Source: Acidobacteriota bacterium
GTDB taxonomy: Bacteria > Acidobacteriota > UBA6911 > RPQK01 > JAJDTT01
Length of the DNA stretch: 64,000 bases
Direction of reading: 5' to 3'
Assembly (NCBI GenBank): GCA_965263035.1
Contig: OZ253580.1
Span: forward strand, 1,120,001 to 1,184,000
In this document: one piece after another, positions 28,761-36,300 of the stretch
Layout: each line of letters begins with the position of its first letter
Position numbering within the stretch: position 1 is the stretch's first letter
The notes under the pieces: generated by a model
Database searches by the model: none
What the model was told of the DNA's origin: nothing
What the model saw: only the letters and a program-made list of their open reading frames with translations
Made by a program: the position numbers and the translations under genes

Positions 28761-29459
28761 TCACGCCGAACCGAGGGGGCTCCGCTTCAGGACGTAATCG
28801 ATGGCCTCTTGCGGGACCTCGTATTCGGTGAGGTACTGGTTGCCCTTGTAACCCACGTCCTCAAATCCGATGGGACTGGTGTAGAACGCATCCACGATCA
28901 GGCGCCGCGCCCACACGAAGAAGTGGACACCAGGCCCAAGGCGCCGATCGGTGCGAGCCGTGTAATCCCTGAAGCCCGCATACTCGGCGCCGGCTCGAGA
29001 GCCCTTCAGGGGCTCTTCCGATCCGTCGGCAGCGGCGGCCAGATCATCCAGCAGCCGGGTCTGCGCCTCCTCGGAGGCATCCTTGAAGCGGCTGGCCTGG
29101 CGGCGGCCCATCTCGCGGTCGAGCCAGAAGATTCCGGAAATGAAGATCCGAGCCAATTCCTCGTTCTGGTTGGAGAGCACGTCGATGAATTCCGGAGCCC
29201 CGGCATCCAGGGCGCTGCCGGAATGATCGTCGGCCGGAATGATCAACTCGCTCAACCGCTGCAGCGTCTCGTACTCTCCGGCATTGAAGCATTGCGGCGT
29301 GTAGTCTCCGGTCCTTTGCTTCTCCTGAGACACGGTCTTGTGGACATGTTGACCCGCCTTCAGATCCAGCACGCCGGCTGACGTCACCGCCAGGGCAATC
29401 CGCTTGAGCAGGGCGCGGCGGGACACTTCGCTCCGCTTGCGGCCGCCCGGATCAGACAT
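28761..29459 (-). CDS. Gluconate 2-dehydrogenase subunit 3 family protein
   Basis: Tat-like SRRALL, LIIPAD..SGSA.DAGAPEFID, FYTS.IG..DVGY.GN; coupled to a GMC gene. Confidence 0.88.
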   Translation of the reverse strand: MSDPGGRKRSEVSRRALLKRIALAVTSAGVLDLKAGQHVHKTVSQEKQRTGDYTPQCFNAGEYETLQRLSELIIPADDHSGSALDAGAPEFIDVLSNQNEELARIFISGIFWLDREMGRRQASRFKDASEEAQTRLLDDLAAAADGSEEPLKGSRAGAEYAGFRDYTARTDRRLGPGVHFFVWARRLIVDAFYTSPIGFEDVGYKGNQYLTEYEVPQEAIDYVLKRSPLGSA

Positions 29460-31164
29460 GGCCCTTCCTCATCTCCTCGGCGATGTAGTCCGAGGTGCGC
29501 CACGCCAGAGCCGTGATGGTCAGAGTGGGATTCTTGTCGGGGTTACTGACGAAAGGAGCGGCATCGGCCACGAACAGGTTGGGCACCTCGTGGCCCTGAC
29601 AGTACTGGTTGAGGGCCGAACTCCGAGGGTCGTTCCCCATTCTAACGGTCCCCAGCTCGTGGATGATGGTGCCGGGGACTGAAATTCCCTTCCCGTCCAC
29701 TTGCGGCGACCGGTGCCCCAACACCTGCCCGCCCATGGACTCGATGAGGTCGACGAAGGTCCGCTCCATGTGCCGGGCCTGTTTCCACTCGTAGTCGCTC
29801 CATTTGAAGTGGAACCGCAGCACCGGAATACCCCATCGGTCCACCGTCACCGGGTCCGACTCGCAGTAGCTCAGATTGTTGGGGATCATCTCGCCGCGGC
29901 CCGCGAACGAGACGAAGGCTCCGTATTCTCTTCGGATCCGTCCCTTGAGTTCCCGGCCGTAGCCGCCGATCCGGCCCACCTGACCCTGGAAGCTGCCGAC
30001 TCCGGGCATTCCGAATCCGCCTCCGATCTCGATATGGTACCCGCGGGGGAAGTCCTTGTTCTTCTTGTCCCATTCCCACCACGGAGAGTAGACGTGACCG
30101 CCGCTGAATCCGTCCGTGTCGTAACGGGGCATTCCCTCCAGAGCCGGGACATACCCCTGGATTCCAAGGCCCACCGTGTCCATCAGGAACCGGCCCACGA
30201 CCCCCGAATTGTTGGACAGACCCTGGGGAAAGCGGCTGGACCGGGAATTGAGAAGCAGCCGCGTGGATTCGCAGGCGCTGGCAGCCAGCACCACGACCCG
30301 GCACCGGATCTGGCGCTCCGTGCGAGTCTTCTTGTCGATGTAGGAGACGGCCGTGACGCGACCGTTCTCGTCGCTGAGGATCTCCCTGGCCATGGCCTGG
30401 TCGAAGATCTTCAGCTTGCCCGTCTTCAGGGCGGGCAGGATCTGTACCTGGCTGGAGGCGTAATTGGAGGCGGTGATGCAACCGCGGCCGCACTGTCCGC
30501 AGTAATGGCAGGCGGCGCGTCCATTGAGGGGCCGGGTAATGACCGCTCGCCGCATGGGTATGCAGGGGAGGCCCATGCGGGTGCAGGCCTGTTTGATGAG
30601 GTGCTCGTGGGCCTTGGGGGGCGGGCAGGGTTGGAAGATGCCGTCGGGGGCGCTCCGGATGCCCTCGATGCTCCCGGTGACACCGATGAAGGACTCCGCC
30701 TTGTCGTAGTAGGGGGCCAGATCCTCGTAAGTGATGGGCCAGTCGGTGCCCAACCCGTCCATGGAGTAGGGCCGGAAATCGTAGTCGGCGAATCGTAGAG
30801 AGATCCGGCCGTAGTGGTTCGTCCGCCCACCCAGGATCCGGGAGCGAAACCAGCGGAATTCGCTGCCCGGCGCCACCGTGTAGGGTTCGCCCTCCAACTC
30901 CCAGGCACCGTTGGGTGCCCGGAAAAAGCCCCATGGCTGCTTACCGAAGTAGTGGGCACCACCCACTCCGGCGCCCCGGTGATCCACGTGATGCGGGAGC
31001 ATGTGCTCCTTGTAGTCCTTTTCGGGATCCAGCATGGGACCCGCTTCCAGGAGGGCCACCTCAATGCCCTTCCCGGTCAGGACCTGGACCGCAGTGCCGC
31101 CGCCGGCGCCGGAACCGATGACCACGACGTCGTACACCTTGGGAGTTCGAATGACTTCAAGCAC
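29452..31164 (-). CDS. GMC family oxidoreductase
   Basis: GSGAGGG FAD motif, LGGRTNHYG, CHYCGQC, HELGTVRMG, NPTLTI; start at GTG 31164 or ATG 31182 (the longer ORF runs into the intron). Confidence 0.93.
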   Translation of the reverse strand: MLEVIRTPKVYDVVVIGSGAGGGTAVQVLTGKGIEVALLEAGPMLDPEKDYKEHMLPHHVDHRGAGVGGAHYFGKQPWGFFRAPNGAWELEGEPYTVAPGSEFRWFRSRILGGRTNHYGRISLRFADYDFRPYSMDGLGTDWPITYEDLAPYYDKAESFIGVTGSIEGIRSAPDGIFQPCPPPKAHEHLIKQACTRMGLPCIPMRRAVITRPLNGRAACHYCGQCGRGCITASNYASSQVQILPALKTGKLKIFDQAMAREILSDENGRVTAVSYIDKKTRTERQIRCRVVVLAASACESTRLLLNSRSSRFPQGLSNNSGVVGRFLMDTVGLGIQGYVPALEGMPRYDTDGFSGGHVYSPWWEWDKKNKDFPRGYHIEIGGGFGMPGVGSFQGQVGRIGGYGRELKGRIRREYGAFVSFAGRGEMIPNNLSYCESDPVTVDRWGIPVLRFHFKWSDYEWKQARHMERTFVDLIESMGGQVLGHRSPQVDGKGISVPGTIIHELGTVRMGNDPRSSALNQYCQGHEVPNLFVADAAPFVSNPDKNPTLTITALAWRTSDYIAEEMRKGHV

Positions 31165-31209
31165 GGGGCTATTCAAGCACATGCAACCGCCGATAAAAAG
31201 GGGGCGTGG

Positions 31210-31839
31210 ATCGGGTCGAGTGCAGGGGATTGCGCCCCTGCACCCTCCCACACCACCGGACGTACCGTTTTCAGTATCCGGCGGTTGGAGTCACTCGAGG
31301 CTCTTTCGAGCCTCGTAAAGGGCCTTTCTTTCCGGTTTTCGCCGCCGCTGGGACTTGATCTCCGCCCTTCCGGCTTGACGGGTTCCACCCTTGGGCCTTC
31401 CGTGCCGGGTCCGAGGGGCCTCCCCCCGCCCCGTTTCCGGAGGTAGTTGCGATCCCGCTGACGAGTCCACCATAGGGCCAGTCCGACTCCTTCGGTCCTT
31501 CGCTCCACCGGCATTATCCGGCTTCTTCGCTACTATGACCTCTGCTGACTTCTCAAAGGCTCTCACCCTTGAGATCTCCCCGAGTAAGGTGCTGCATCTT
31601 TCCCCCCGGGCCGCCCGGCTCTACCTGGTACGTCTGGATGGGGTTCGGGTTTCGCTGTTGCTCGCCAGCTCACCGCCCGCACCCGGCCTCGCTGCCGGTT
31701 CGTGTTCCTGCGGTCGTGGGTTTGCCTTCCGCTTCCTTCAGCTTCACCTCGCGGCTACGCCTTGCGGTTCGGCTAGGGTTGGTCCCATCACCTCCCTTGG
31801 GATCTTTCATCCCTTAGATACAGCCCATGTCGGGCGCAC
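31210..31839 (-). ncRNA. Group II intron, class IIC, ORF-less (630 nt)
   Basis: 5' GTGCGCCCGACATGG; IIC-type domain V ACCGCCGGATACTGAAAACGGTACGTCCGGTGGT (31285-31252); domain VI hairpin ending ACCCGAT; inserted 3 nt after a hairpin. Confidence 0.92.
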
Positions 31840-31907
31840 GAGCGGGGGTTTGCAACCCCCGATTCCGGGTCGGTGTTGAAGAGGGGGACAAGAATGTCCC
31901 CTCCCAC
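31840..31907. repeat. REP/REPIN-like inverted pair (one arm split by the intron)
   Basis: GTGG(31206-31209)+GAG-CGGGGGTTTGCAACCCCCG ... AGGGGGACAAGAATGTCCCCT-CCCAC; GTGGGAG/CTCCCAC ends are restored when the intron is removed. Confidence 0.75.
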
Positions 31908-31945
31908 CCCCCTCCCAGAGTGCCCCTATGCTTTTCCAAGAAGCA

Positions 31946-33370
31946 TCAAAGCAGCGATCGGGCCTCGGCCAATACCTTGCCGGCCAACTCTGCCTGGCGC
32001 CGGGTGTCGAAGGGTCCGGGTCCTGATTCGAACACTCGAGTCCGTCCTCCGCCGCCCGGTCTCCAACGGCGTGCGAAGAGGGGGGTGGCATGTCCGCCGA
32101 AGATGGTGATCAGATCCAGGTTCAGGGCACCGGCCAGATGCTGACCCAGCGAGTCGTAACCGACGTAGATCCGGCACTGCCGCAGAAGCGCCCCGAACTC
32201 CGCGACCGGCCCCTGAAACAAAACCAGCCGGACGGGCGATGAGCCCGAGTCATCTTGCAGAAGTCGCCCCCCCACGATTCGGGCCGTACTCAAGCCCCGC
32301 TCCCGAGTGTCGAAGTAGAGCTGCCGGGCCCGCTCCAACTCATCCGCGCCCAAGCCGGCATCCAGCACCAGCGTCGCCCCCCGATCCAGCAAGCCTGTCA
32401 CCAATAGACGCTCAAAATCGGAGACCGTTTCCCGATCCCGATGAATTCTCTTGTCCGGATTGCCTCCGACTCCCAGATTCATGCCCACCAGAACCGGCTC
32501 CCGGCCCAGGTTCAGGGGGGGCAGCATCTCCTTCGCCCAACCCCGGACCGAATCCGCGAGATGCAGGGACGGACCCTGAAGCGGATTCCGAGGGTGGGTC
32601 CGGAACATCTCACCAAGCCAACGGTTCAGATCCTCCAACTGGCTGCGTTCCTTCGTCTCTCTCCCTGAAACCGACGGATCCCAACCGCAGTAGCTCCTCG
32701 CCTCCCGGCCCGCGGGAACCAGCGGCAGGAGTCCGCTCTGGAGAAACCGGGAATCGGGATTGATGACGACGAAGTCGCCGCCGGCCACCAGACCAAGGGT
32801 CTCTTCGCGGACGGCATCCACCAGATCCACCCAGGTCAACAAGCGTTCCAACAGGGAGCCACGGCGCGGATAGGAGAGCTCGCGGGTCCGGAAGCGGGGC
32901 GAGTCCCCGGCGATCAGGGCGGCGTTCTTCCGGCTGCCCAGGAACACGACCTCGGCATCGGGAAAGGCGGCCAGGCAGGTGCGGACGATGACGCCGGTGA
33001 GCAGGACGTCGGCACCCAGGGTCACCCGGGAGGGGACCAGCACCCGCCCCACTTGGCGGGGGAGGGCCCGAATCCCGCTCCGGTTCAGCCTCTGAACCCG
33101 GGTCAGGAGCGCGTCTTCATCGTCCAGCCCCATCCGGTGGAGCCTCTGATGGAACGAGAGGGCCTCCGGGAGCCGCCGGACCCGGGTGACGATTCGGGCC
33201 ATCAGCCGCTGCTGCAGCCCTCGGTCCGGCGCCAGGAACGAGTCTCCCAAGGGTTCGATCAGATTTTGGAACAGGCGTTGAGTCCCAGTCCGGGCTCGAT
33301 CGGGGTCTGGCGAGAGGGCCGGACTCAGACCAGTGTTCAAGATTTCCCAACCCGGAAATCGTGGGGACAT
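31946..33370 (-). CDS. Glycosyltransferase family 9 (heptosyltransferase-like) protein
   Basis: SRVTLGADV, YVGYDSLGQHLAGAL, WRP motifs. Confidence 0.65.
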   Translation of the reverse strand: MSPRFPGWEILNTGLSPALSPDPDRARTGTQRLFQNLIEPLGDSFLAPDRGLQQRLMARIVTRVRRLPEALSFHQRLHRMGLDDEDALLTRVQRLNRSGIRALPRQVGRVLVPSRVTLGADVLLTGVIVRTCLAAFPDAEVVFLGSRKNAALIAGDSPRFRTRELSYPRRGSLLERLLTWVDLVDAVREETLGLVAGGDFVVINPDSRFLQSGLLPLVPAGREARSYCGWDPSVSGRETKERSQLEDLNRWLGEMFRTHPRNPLQGPSLHLADSVRGWAKEMLPPLNLGREPVLVGMNLGVGGNPDKRIHRDRETVSDFERLLVTGLLDRGATLVLDAGLGADELERARQLYFDTRERGLSTARIVGGRLLQDDSGSSPVRLVLFQGPVAEFGALLRQCRIYVGYDSLGQHLAGALNLDLITIFGGHATPLFARRWRPGGGGRTRVFESGPGPFDTRRQAELAGKVLAEARSLL

Positions 33371-33376
33371 TGTCGT

Positions 33377-36300
33377 TCAGTTCCGGGGGCTGCCACCCTT
33401 CACCGGAGCGGGGATCAGGGTCGGGCGTTCCACTTCCTGTACGGGACGGCGCCCCAGGAGCCATCGGGCAGCTCGTCCCAGATCCTCCAGAATCATGTAG
33501 GTGCACGGCACCAGAATCAGGATGACCGGAGTCGAGAATACGACGCCGAACGCCAGGGAAACAGCCATGGGGATGAGGAACTGGGCCTGCAGACTCGTTT
33601 CCAGGAGCAATGGAGTCAGGCCGGCGAAAGTGGTCAGGGAGGTGAGGAAGATGGGCCGGAACCGAGCCGCCCCAGCTGTCAGGATCGACTCTCGGAGCGG
33701 GACTCCGGCACGCTGTTTCCGGTTGACGTAGTCGACCAGGATCAGACTGTCGTTCACGACCACGCCCGCCAGGGCAACGATGCCGAACACGGACAGGATG
33801 CTCAGGTCCATTCCCAGGATCCTGTGGCCCAGAAAGGCGCCCACCAACCCGAAGGGAATCGCGCTCATGATGATCAGCGGCTGGAAGTAGGAGCGGAGAG
33901 GAATGGCCAACAATGCAAAGATGGCAGCCAGGGCCATGCCGAAACCTTGCAGGAGTCCGCTTACCGTCTCGCTCTGCTGCTCCTGCTCGCCCTCCAACGA
34001 ATAGCTCAGGCCCGGAAACTGCTGCAACAGCGAGGGAAGGTAGTCCGCCTCCAACTCCGCCAGAATTTCGTTGGAGTTGGCCCGTTGAGTGTCCACCTCC
34101 GCGGTCACGCTGATGGAGCGATTCCGGTCCACCCGGCGGATGGATGCGAAGCCACGGCTCAGTTCGGAATCGGCCACCACTGAAAAGGGAACCTCATCGC
34201 CGTCCGGGGTCCGGATCCGCATCCCCTCCATCTGCCCCAGGGAACGGCGTCGATCCGAGGGATACCGGACCATGATCTTGACCTCGTCCCGGCCCCGCTG
34301 AATCCGCTGGACCTCCTCCCCGTAGAAGGCTTGTCGGATCTGTCTTGCCAAGTCCTCTTGCGTCAGACCCAGCGACTCGGCGTCCGGATGAATCTTGAGC
34401 TTGATCTCCTGCTTACCGGCCCGGAAGGAATCGGCGATGTCGTAGACCCCCGCGTATTCGTTCAATTTCAGCTTGAACTTGTGCGCGGCCTCCTGCAGTC
34501 GGTTCAGGTCGGGACCGGAGAACTGAACATTGATGGGAGCTCCCGCGGCGAAGAGTGAGGCCGAGAAGCTGAGTTCCACGGCATCTGGGATGGTTCCCGT
34601 CAACTCCCGCCAGCGGTTGCCTATCTCGGTGCTGCTGAAGAGTCTGCCGTCTTGTGCCAGGGGCCGTTCTTCGGATGGCGCCAGTTCAATGTTCACCTCT
34701 CCCAGGTGGGCGCCGGTGAATCGGGACACGCCTCCGTTGTGTCGATTCTGAATGACGCGGGTGGGTTGATCCCCCACTGACGTGAGCACATGACGGAACA
34801 CGCTGGCCGAGCCGTCCCCCTGGCTGGACGAGTCGATCTCCTCCCGGAGCACCGAGGCGGCTCGCTCCACTTTCTCCATCACGCGGGCGGTGGTCTCGGC
34901 CGGTGTGCCCTGAGGCATGGTCAGAAAGGCCATCACGTTGTCCGCCTCCACCGGAGGGAAGAAATTGAACTTGATTCTTCCGCCCAGAATCATGCCGACG
35001 ACCAGCACCAAGATGGAGACTCCCAGGGCCGCCGTCAGGTAACGCCACTCGACGGCCACGCGCAGGAGGGGTTCGTAGACCCGCTTGACGAATCCTTTGA
35101 GCAGTCCTGAGATCAGGTCCTGAAGGCGGTTCCACAACCCGAACAATCCCCGTTTCCGCAGACTTTCGGAGCGTCTCAGGTGGGAGAGGTGATAGGGCAG
35201 GATGAGCAGGGACTCGACCAGCGAAAAGACCAGTGTGGGCAGGACCACCAGGGGAATGACCCGCATGATCTTCCCGGTGGGGCCTTCGATCATCAGCAGT
35301 GGGGAGAAGGCGGCCACCGTGGTCGCCACCGCAAAAAACACGGGAACCATCATCTCCTGTGTCCCGTCGATGACCGCCTGCAGCTTGGGCTTCCCCTGCT
35401 CGTATTGGGAAAAGATGTTCTCGCCGACGACAATGGCGTCGTCCACCACAATTCCCAGTACGACGATGAAGGCGAACAGGGAGATCAGGTTGATGGAGAC
35501 GTCCAGGTGGGGCAAAACCATGAGGCAGCCCAGAAACGAAATGGGAATGCCCAGGCTGACCCAGAATGCCAGGCCGACTCTCAGAAACAACGTCAGAGTC
35601 AGAACGACCAGCGCCAACCCCGCCAAGCCGTTCTTGATCAGCAGGTCGAGCCGGCTCCGCAGGATGCGGGAGTCGTCCTTCCACGTGGTCAGCGTCAGGC
35701 CTTCCGGCAACTGCAACTGTTTCTGCCTGACGTACTCGCGAACGGCGGCGGCAATCTCCAGAGCGCTCTGCCTCCCGACTCGGAAGACCTGGACCAGGAT
35801 GGCCGGCCGGCCGTCGAACCGGGCCGATTGATCGGTCTCGGCGAACCCGTCCACCACCCGGGCCACGTCTCCCAGCAGGACCCGGGTGCCGTCCCGTCCG
35901 GAGAGAAGCGTCAGTTCCTGGAAATCCTCTCCCACGTAGGCCTGACTATTGGTTCTCAGCAGGATCTCGCCCGCCTGAGTCTTCACCGAGCCCCCAGGGA
36001 GGTCCAGGGAAGATCGGCGGACCGCCCGGGCCACCTGATCGAAGGAAAGGCTGTGGCGGAGCAGGGCTTCCTCCGAGACCTCGATGGAGACTTCATAAGG
36101 GCGGGCGCTGGACAACTCGGCCTGGGTGATCCCGGGCAGGGAGGCGACCTCGTCCCGAACCTGCTCGGCGACCCGCTTGAGGGTCCGCTCGTCCGCCTGT
36201 CCCGAGACGGCTATGTTGATGACCTGATTGCGGACGATGGCCTCCTGGATGACCGGCTGCTCGGCCTCCTCCGGAAAGGTGCTGATGGCGTCCACCCGGG

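Follow-up and report, generated by a model that had tools for sequence, protein, structure and literature searches.

Analysis of a 64,000-nt stretch of an Acidobacteriota genome (hereafter the window), which is part of one 6.198-Mb contig (62% G+C), showed a group II intron without an open reading frame (ORF) on the minus strand, located between a glycosyltransferase-like gene and a GMC oxidoreductase gene that is itself followed by a gene resembling gluconate 2-dehydrogenase subunit 3 (Table 1). An initial annotation, made from the letters of the window, had described this element as a class C (IIC) intron without reverse transcriptase (RT), inserted behind a repetitive extragenic palindromic (REP) hairpin in the leader of the GMC operon and mobilised in trans. 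Based on the evidence given below, the intron is very probably one copy of a non-autonomous class C family that multiplied at REP-like hairpins by using RT from sister copies in the same genome.

Table 1. Intron, target and neighbouring features at the insertion site, in positions of the window.
Feature	Position	Strand	Description
ORF-less group IIC intron	31839..31210	minus	630 nt, GUGCG...ACCCGAU; no ORF; Rfam and fold
Domain I core	31591..31758	minus	Rfam RF02001 group-II-D1D4-3, 81.4 bits, E 8.7e-16, above gathering score
Domains II–III region	31495..31588	minus	Rfam RF01998 group-II-D1D4-1, 47.2 bits, above gathering score
Domain IV remnant	31287..31494	minus	retains ~190 nt preceding the RT start codon of the sister copies; alignment
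Deletion junction	31297..31314	minus	stem GAGGCUC-GAAA-GAGCCUC in place of 1.2-kb RT ORF
Domains V–VI (Intron_gpII)	31210..31286	minus	Rfam RF00029, 39.0 bits; gathering score 40
Domain V	31252..31285	minus	34-nt hairpin, 2-nt bulge, CGC replacing AGC triad; Rfam and fold
Domain VI	31212..31249	minus	unpaired A at 31216, 7 nt from 3' end; Rfam and fold
Exon-binding site 1 (EBS1), GAGC	31663..31660	minus	loop of hairpin GCUG-GCGAGCAA-CAGC; pairs with GCUC in 24/24 copies
Target stem-loop CGGGGGTTGCAAACCCCCG	31861..31843	minus	5' exon; REP-like hairpin, B type
Intron-binding site 1 (IBS1), GCTC	31843..31840	minus	final 4 nt of 5' exon
First 3' exon base C, presumed IBS3	31209	minus	C in 23/24 copies and 127/128 empty sites
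Second REP-like hairpin GGGGACATTCTTGTCCCC	31884..31901	minus	D type; upstream half of composite repeat; 91 copies at ≤2 mismatches
Upstream co-directional gene	31946..33370	minus	474 aa, weak glycosyltransferase-9 match
Downstream GMC oxidoreductase gene	29452..31182	minus	first in-frame ATG 31182, 27 nt after intron; predicted start

Read on the minus strand, the site runs ...CGGGGGTTGCAAACCCCCG-CTC / GTGCGCCC...GACCCGAT / CCACGCCCCC..., where slashes mark the intron-exon boundaries and the 3' exon begins CCACGCCCC. The triplet CTC (31842–31840) separates the hairpin from the intron start, placing the insertion 3 nt past the hairpin as originally described, and the boundaries first proposed (GTGCG...ACCCGAT) proved accurate to the base. 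The termini GUGCG...GAU are the exact limits of similarity among the 24 copies found in the genome, agree with the 5' GUGYG and 3' AY expected of such introns, and are also the limits of a 630-nt skip in one public contig. The Rfam scan suggested at the outset, run over positions 29000–34000, gave three collinear matches, all on the minus strand, and confirmed the ribozyme; RF02001 and RF01998 were the only gathering-level Rfam matches across the whole window. The minimum-energy fold (z −2.7) contained the domain V hairpin with its bulge, domain VI and the EBS1 hairpin. A CGC in the triad position of domain V is typical of IIC introns, and the unpaired A in domain VI is the likely branch point. 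The element was confirmed as a group II intron of bacterial class C, its defining features being present where testable.

A blastn search of the genome with the intron, directed at the sibling copies and RT-bearing parent that the initial annotation had postulated, returned both; the checks run among those suggested at the outset all favored that annotation. Besides 19 intact ORF-less copies of 630–632 nt at 95–100% identity, there were three interrupted ORF-less copies, one 51-nt fragment and two RT-bearing copies of 1848 nt, so that ORF-less copies outnumber their autonomous partners by approximately 11 to 1. Aligned with the RT-bearing sisters, the window copy lacks the whole ORF: positions 1–517 of the ORF-less form correspond to positions 1–520 of the long copies at ~92% identity and positions 540–630 to their last 91 nt (local alignments). 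The lost segment begins shortly ahead of the ATG and ends shortly ahead of the stop codon; a perfect 7-bp stem capped by GAAA takes its place, while the 40 nt directly upstream of the junction are almost identical in the two forms. The part of domain IV (DIV) that is retained may correspond to the RT-binding DIVa. All 19 intact ORF-less copies share the same deletion junction and the alignments of the three interrupted copies run across it, which indicates one deletion event with multiplication afterwards. One other copy is 100% identical to the window copy and seven more differ from it at one base; nine copies lie within 1 nt of each other. Six ORF-less copies that are more divergent share character states with the long copies, as expected from successive waves of an evolving master copy.

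These copies bear directly on whether the window intron could be a one-off relic, decayed and immobile after loss of the ORF. Passages of a review that call ORF-less bacterial introns rare and splicing-only (PMC4424553) would suit such a relic, and the initial annotation had held that an absence of siblings at REP sites would point to one; the copies were found to lie after a hairpin followed by GCTC. Given 22 ORF-less copies with one common junction, nine of which differ by at most 1 nt, intact catalytic domains and an orthologous site that is empty in a congener, we regard a relic as extremely improbable.

The interrupted copies are located at genome positions 3067627–3070027, 3923178–3925592 and 5180457–5185638. 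Two of them carry the same IS3-family insertion sequence (IS; HTH_Tnp_1 and rve ORFs) at different positions, and the third a complex insert of ~4.7 kb with several ORFs, including one with a weak match to a DnaA/IstB-like ATPase. An IS within an intron within a REP indicates nested layers, in which the REP was followed by the intron and then by the IS.

The two 1848-nt sister copies are identical except at 6 positions, and each holds an intact frame of 497 codons, with a ribozyme ~92% identical to the ORF-less one. The encoded protein matched Pfam RVT_1 (3.8e-38) and GIIM only, with no endonuclease (En) domain found among its domains; it also matched NCBIfam TIGR04416 (group_II_RT_mat) at 362 bits, with a cut-off of 300, and contains a YADD motif. 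Compared with solved structures, it scored 451 bits (E 4.6e-134) with the GsI-IIC RT and 346 bits with the RT of a IIC ribonucleoprotein (RNP), vs. 124 bits with LtrA (IIA) and 110 bits with a IIB RT. Since the GsI-IIC match starts at residue 87, the real start of the RT is probably the ATG at intron position 538. Judged by these matches, the predicted protein is an En-less class C intron-encoded protein (IEP), and it would be the one that serves the ORF-less copies in trans.

It is also conceivable that the family spread by retromobility and is now extinct, or is helped by a different RT such as that of a second, unrelated intron family. The ORF-less and ORF-bearing ribozymes differ by ~8%, and by more in DIV; four copies of the second RT-bearing intron are present; and a second ORF-less family in the genome, which has no similar RT-bearing copy, suggests that some heterologous help may occur. 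On the other hand, very recent activity is indicated by the nine near-identical copies, neither sister RT ORF is disrupted and the two hardly differ, and a long DIV stretch just before the ORF is conserved in both forms. The second RT is moreover far from IIC RTs (165 vs. 451 bits), and the ribozyme of its family has no nucleotide similarity to the second ORF-less family, the only one with which it was compared. We therefore consider extinction or a different helper unlikely and favor help from the sister RT, although helper relationships may be more complex than one RT per ribozyme, given the second RT-bearing and second ORF-less families.

The hairpins at which the copies lie are themselves repeated. 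The main landing hairpin, CGGCGRCAAGAAAGYCGCCGCTC, was counted 241 times when ≤3 mismatches were allowed. GCTC terminates 147 of these copies, 19 of which hold an intron; in the 128 that are empty, C follows GCTC in 127. This hairpin often occurs in direct tandems with 28-nt spacing (51 pairs; inverted doublets, or REPINs, were not searched for). The hairpin family of the window type comprises 73 copies, 2 of them occupied, and is usually preceded by the partner hairpin GGGGACATTCTTGTCCCC, one of two partner hairpins of the REP-like families (91 and 35 copies). Two Y1-transposase ORFs had as their best family NF047646, the REP-associated tyrosine transposase (RAYT), at 73.6 and 76.5 bits and thus under the cut-off of 80. 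One of these RAYT-like ORFs, which has an upstream in-frame stop, carries the window-type two-hairpin composite on both sides in direct orientation, and the other has main-family hairpins nearby. With hundreds of copies and RAYT-like genes surrounded by the hairpins, REP-like is a fair name for them. Altogether 23 of the 24 intron copies lie in REP-like hairpins, which bears out the earlier proposal that REPs serve as multicopy targets.

The insertion sites defined the target closely. GCTC precedes the intron in all 24 copies and the next exon base is C in 23 of them; a perfect stem of at least 6 bp ends 3 nt before the insertion in 22 copies, and the other two have the same hairpin with a mismatch. 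Such a perfect stem precedes only 435 of 26,036 genomic GCTCC sites (1.7%; binomial p 2e-37). The 7-mer CCGCTCC occurs in the window at about chance frequency (35 found vs. 26.6 ± 4.7 expected), so that sequence alone fails to explain the sites. The copies make use of at least four distinct hairpin sequences and have unrelated 3' flanks, unique from the second base on, indicating independent insertions. One copy (436206–436835, minus strand) lies outside the repeats, after a chance hairpin and GCTC/C (slash = insertion point), antisense within a Zn-type alcohol dehydrogenase gene (ADH_N 6e-28, ADH_zinc_N 8e-19). It is inserted ~317 codons into the 365-codon frame; splicing cannot remove it from that mRNA, and the gene is left truncated. 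The recognised target is a stem-loop followed by GCTC/C rather than the 'GTGGGAG-type REP' split at CTC/CCAC that had been annotated. While GTGGGAG is indeed present at 31907–31901, CCA follows GCTC in only 37/128 and 19/62 empty sites; at ~30%, CTC/CCAC and GTGGGAG are not general features of the target.

Pairing between EBS1 and IBS1, proposed earlier for GAGC in the domain I loop and the exon end GCTC, was complementary in 24/24 copies and covaried across relatives and congeners. For the relatives, 80 public-genome loci of RT homologs (best 62–68% identity) from Acidobacteriota, Verrucomicrobiota and Bryobacterales metagenome-assembled genomes were used. Alignment of their 5' ribozyme halves by nhmmer gave 73 matches, from which 27 that fell short of the first four intron positions were dropped, as were 5 without flank or with gaps, leaving 41 introns and the window copy (42 in total) with 27 distinct combinations of exon end and loop. 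In these, 91 of 108 positions paired, compared to 54.0 ± 4.4 in shuffles, none of 5000 of which reached 91; examples of exon end and loop are GCCA/UGGC, GCUA/UAGC, CCUA/UAGG and UUUG/CAAA. Among congeners, EBS1 is GAGG and the exon ends ...CCTC in 3/3 ORF-less copies (G001, G003, G008), and the ORF-bearing copy in G004 combines GAGC with GCTC as in the studied genome. The more distant RT relatives lie mostly after hairpins with T-run terminators, the classical location of IIC introns, and the nearest clade after G+C-rich hairpins without a T-run.

The copies also showed a bias with respect to replication. The origin was placed by the minimum of the cumulative GC skew (2.86 Mb; maximum 5.84 Mb) and by dnaA at 2.872 Mb (240 bits). 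The sense strand of the intron lies on the leading-strand sequence, i.e., on the lagging-strand template, in 20 of 24 copies (binomial 7.7e-4), compared to 44 of 127 (35%) empty main-family GCTC/C sites in that orientation (Fisher 2e-5 vs. occupied). Such a pattern would be expected if an intron with an En-less RT entered exposed single-stranded DNA by reverse splicing, with priming from the lagging strand, and a strand bias of class C introns is reported in parts of a large survey (PMC8919778).

The same observations bear on a passive spread of the intron as DNA, carried along with REPs by a RAYT-like transposase, duplication or recombination. Most copies do lie in one REP-like family with similar upstream composites, and RAYT-like genes are present in the genome. 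Passive spread is nonetheless very unlikely, as no two copies share their 3' flank beyond its first base, at least four kinds of hairpin occur on the 5' side, one copy occupies a non-REP site within a gene, and similarity between copies is bounded exactly by GUGCG...GAU; in addition, the copies and the empty REPs are biased to opposite strands and EBS1 tracks the exon end between species.

Retromobility at REP-like hairpins, the reading that we favor, could have proceeded as follows. One deletion would have removed the RT gene from domain IV, leaving the GAAA-capped stem, and the derivative would have multiplied to at least 22 copies. The intron RNA would be transcribed and spliced with the RT/maturase of the two ORF-bearing sisters, and the resulting RNP would reverse-splice into single-stranded DNA at replication forks. 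There it would recognise the DNA stem-loop, then GCTC (IBS1, pairing with EBS1 GAGC) and then C, with most landing sites provided by the abundant REP-like hairpins ending ...CGCTCC. As the RT has no endonuclease domain, cDNA synthesis would probably be primed by the nascent lagging strand. Trans action, reverse splicing at forks and lagging-strand priming are taken from what is described of group IIC and En-minus introns in sections of two publications (PMC12584367, PMC8919778) and from the Thermosynechococcus precedent as reported in part of another (PMC2882425). The window copy would have landed, in sense, in a REP composite inserted earlier between the glycosyltransferase-like gene and the GMC operon.

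Several points weigh against this reconstruction. The RF00029 match, at 39.0 bits, is 1 bit under its gathering score of 40. EBS3 was not located, and no domain I column tracks the first 3' exon base among 13 relatives with both boundaries. The sisters are ~92% identical to the ORF-less ribozyme and more divergent in part of DIV, so that compatibility of RT and RNA is only assumed, and the second, unrelated RT-bearing family (4 copies) could be the helper instead. A co-directional upstream gene was found for only 11 of 24 copies, which makes transcription of many copies not obvious; this count comes from a rough heuristic based on ORFs and GC3, which mishandles overlapping ORFs (it skipped the GMC gene at the window copy) and was not used as evidence. 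Splicing and mobility are unobserved, and three metatranscriptome runs gave no exon-exon joint; contigs are no guide to absence, starts or levels, and since the intron is multi-copy, no conclusion on expression or splicing was drawn.

The history of the insertion site could be followed in congeners. In the studied genome, the spacer between the two flanking genes is ~760 nt long (31183–31945). The orthologous spacer in G003 contains a hairpin and GCTC/CCATGCCCC without an intron, and those in G002 and G005 are short and lack any REP, indicating that the REP arrived first and the intron second. One contig from a public run, the kind of which is unrecorded, matches 310 nt of the GMC flank without a difference and then joins 31209 exactly to 31840, skipping the 630 nt. 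As it extends only 23 letters past the joint, it is weak evidence; if derived from DNA, it would represent an allele with an empty site in the same species, and if derived from RNA, ligated exons.

By position, the intron does lie in the leader of the GMC operon, as had been annotated, which raises the question of whether this copy was co-opted as a regulator of the operon, either through splicing-dependent expression or through an outward promoter. Such a role would agree with its being in sense and ending 27 nt before the GMC start, and outward promoters are described for IIC-attC introns in part of the literature (PMC3001079). However, a promoter scan found no sigma-70-like site in 31000–32100, the window copy is identical to copies at unrelated loci, and the site is empty in one congener and REP-free in two others; co-option is thus highly improbable. 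In the same interval (31000–32100), two plus-strand terminator-like sites were not above the expectation from shuffles.

ORF-less copies in the congeners G001, G003 and G008 have junctions that differ from each other and from that of the studied genome, and in one of them four codons from the start of the ORF and nine from its end are left; this reflects either repeated loss of the ORF or further trimming of one old deletion. A broader reading, which we put forward only tentatively and consider rather more doubtful than the spread of the window family itself, is that selfish RNA elements of several layers use the REP-like hairpins of the genus as a common landing pad. In that case, the class C lineage would have shed its RT gene more than once, as the differing junctions in four species may suggest; ORF-less forms of it occur in four congeneric species and predominate in the studied genome; single-base changes in EBS1 (GAGC to GAGG) would match REP variants (GCTC to CCTC); and a second ORF-less family would depend on a heterologous RT, as suggested by its lack of a similar RT-bearing genomic copy.

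This second, unrelated ORF-less group II family is ~642 nt long and has seven copies and a fragment (e.g., 3066875–3067516, plus strand; Rfam group-II-D1D4-6 165 bits, domain V 36.9 bits). It inserts in the loop of the main REP hairpin on the complementary strand (GGCGACT / TTCTTGTCGCC, slash = insertion point), and all seven copies are in leading-strand orientation (by hand). One second-family ORF-less copy (within 2482147–2483529) begins exactly at the end of a RAYT-like open frame, having landed in the repeat directly downstream. No RT-bearing copy similar to this family was found in the genome by blastn, nor any similarity between it and the second RT-bearing family. The latter is 2007 nt long and has four copies, one of them interrupted (e.g., within 5536700–5539000), with a ribozyme scoring 92.6 bits with D1D4-4 and an RT composed of RVT_1 and GIIM (only 165 bits to the IIC RT). 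On the 3' side it is flanked by a ~514-nt repeat that has more than 20 copies, so that it seems to home into another repeated element. The best genomic domain V match (340877–340952, minus strand, 52 bits) has no D1–D4 match or RT within 2 kb and may be another ORF-less or degenerate intron.

Bacterial ORF-less introns are described in passages of a review as rare and nearly always found alongside related IEP-encoding introns (PMC4424553), and a large survey mentions, in the part concerned, their expansion in 'certain genomes' (PMC8919778). The one well-studied case so far is the IIB-like family of a thermophilic cyanobacterium: according to parts of the study by Mohr, Ghanem and Lambowitz (2010; PMC2882425), Thermosynechococcus elongatus contains 17 ORF-less introns that share one common deletion and outnumber the ORF-bearing ones, and ORF-less TeI3 was mobilised in trans by TeI4 IEPs in Escherichia coli assays. 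As far as those parts of the study extend, the family described here resembles TeI3 in having one deletion of the DIV ORF common to all ORF-less copies, more ORF-less than ORF-bearing copies, good EBS/IBS pairing at its sites and IEP-encoding relatives in the same genome. TeI3 differs in being IIB-like (CL), with En-containing IEPs, long EBS1/EBS2 targets and twintrons, whereas the present family is of class C, with an En-less RT, a target consisting of a DNA stem-loop and a 4-nt IBS1, and REP-like landing sites. Mobilisation in trans is experimental in Thermosynechococcus and likely by analogy in the present family.

Known group IIC introns (e.g., B.h.I1, GsI-IIC, IIC-attC) insert after Rho-independent terminators or attC stem-loops, as stated in parts of two publications (PMC12584367, PMC8919778). 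The present family shares with them the RT lineage (451 bits to the GsI-IIC RT), a small ribozyme, insertion a few nucleotides past a hairpin, a short EBS1-IBS1 pairing and a bias to one replication strand. In contrast to them, its clade targets G+C-rich, REP-like hairpins without a T-run and its dominant form has no ORF. For Pseudomonas putida KT2440, a table in Tobes and Pareja (2006; PMC1525189) links 2 of 9 group II intron copies to REPs, which are thus insertion sites there as well. Compared with what that table gives, however, the present family has 23 of 24 copies in REP-like hairpins, its determinants are specified as a stem-loop and GCTC/C, and the intron is non-autonomous. Apart from that table row, a literature search that left aside the supplements of PMC8919778 found no ORF-less IIC family and no group II intron homing to REP/RAYT repeats.

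Minimal class C introns that recognise structure can thus also turn into non-autonomous retroelements resembling miniature inverted-repeat transposable elements, and REP-type repeats, non-autonomous themselves, can supply hundreds of ready-made intron targets. The natural one-base switch of EBS1 and IBS1 between sister species provides a clean and testable example of retargeting, and a 630-nt ribozyme with a separate helper RT forms a convenient natural two-part system for target recognition by IIC introns in single-stranded DNA. Overall, the family probably works like the non-autonomous introns of Thermosynechococcus and is new in its class, its structure-recognised REP target and its natural EBS1 switch.

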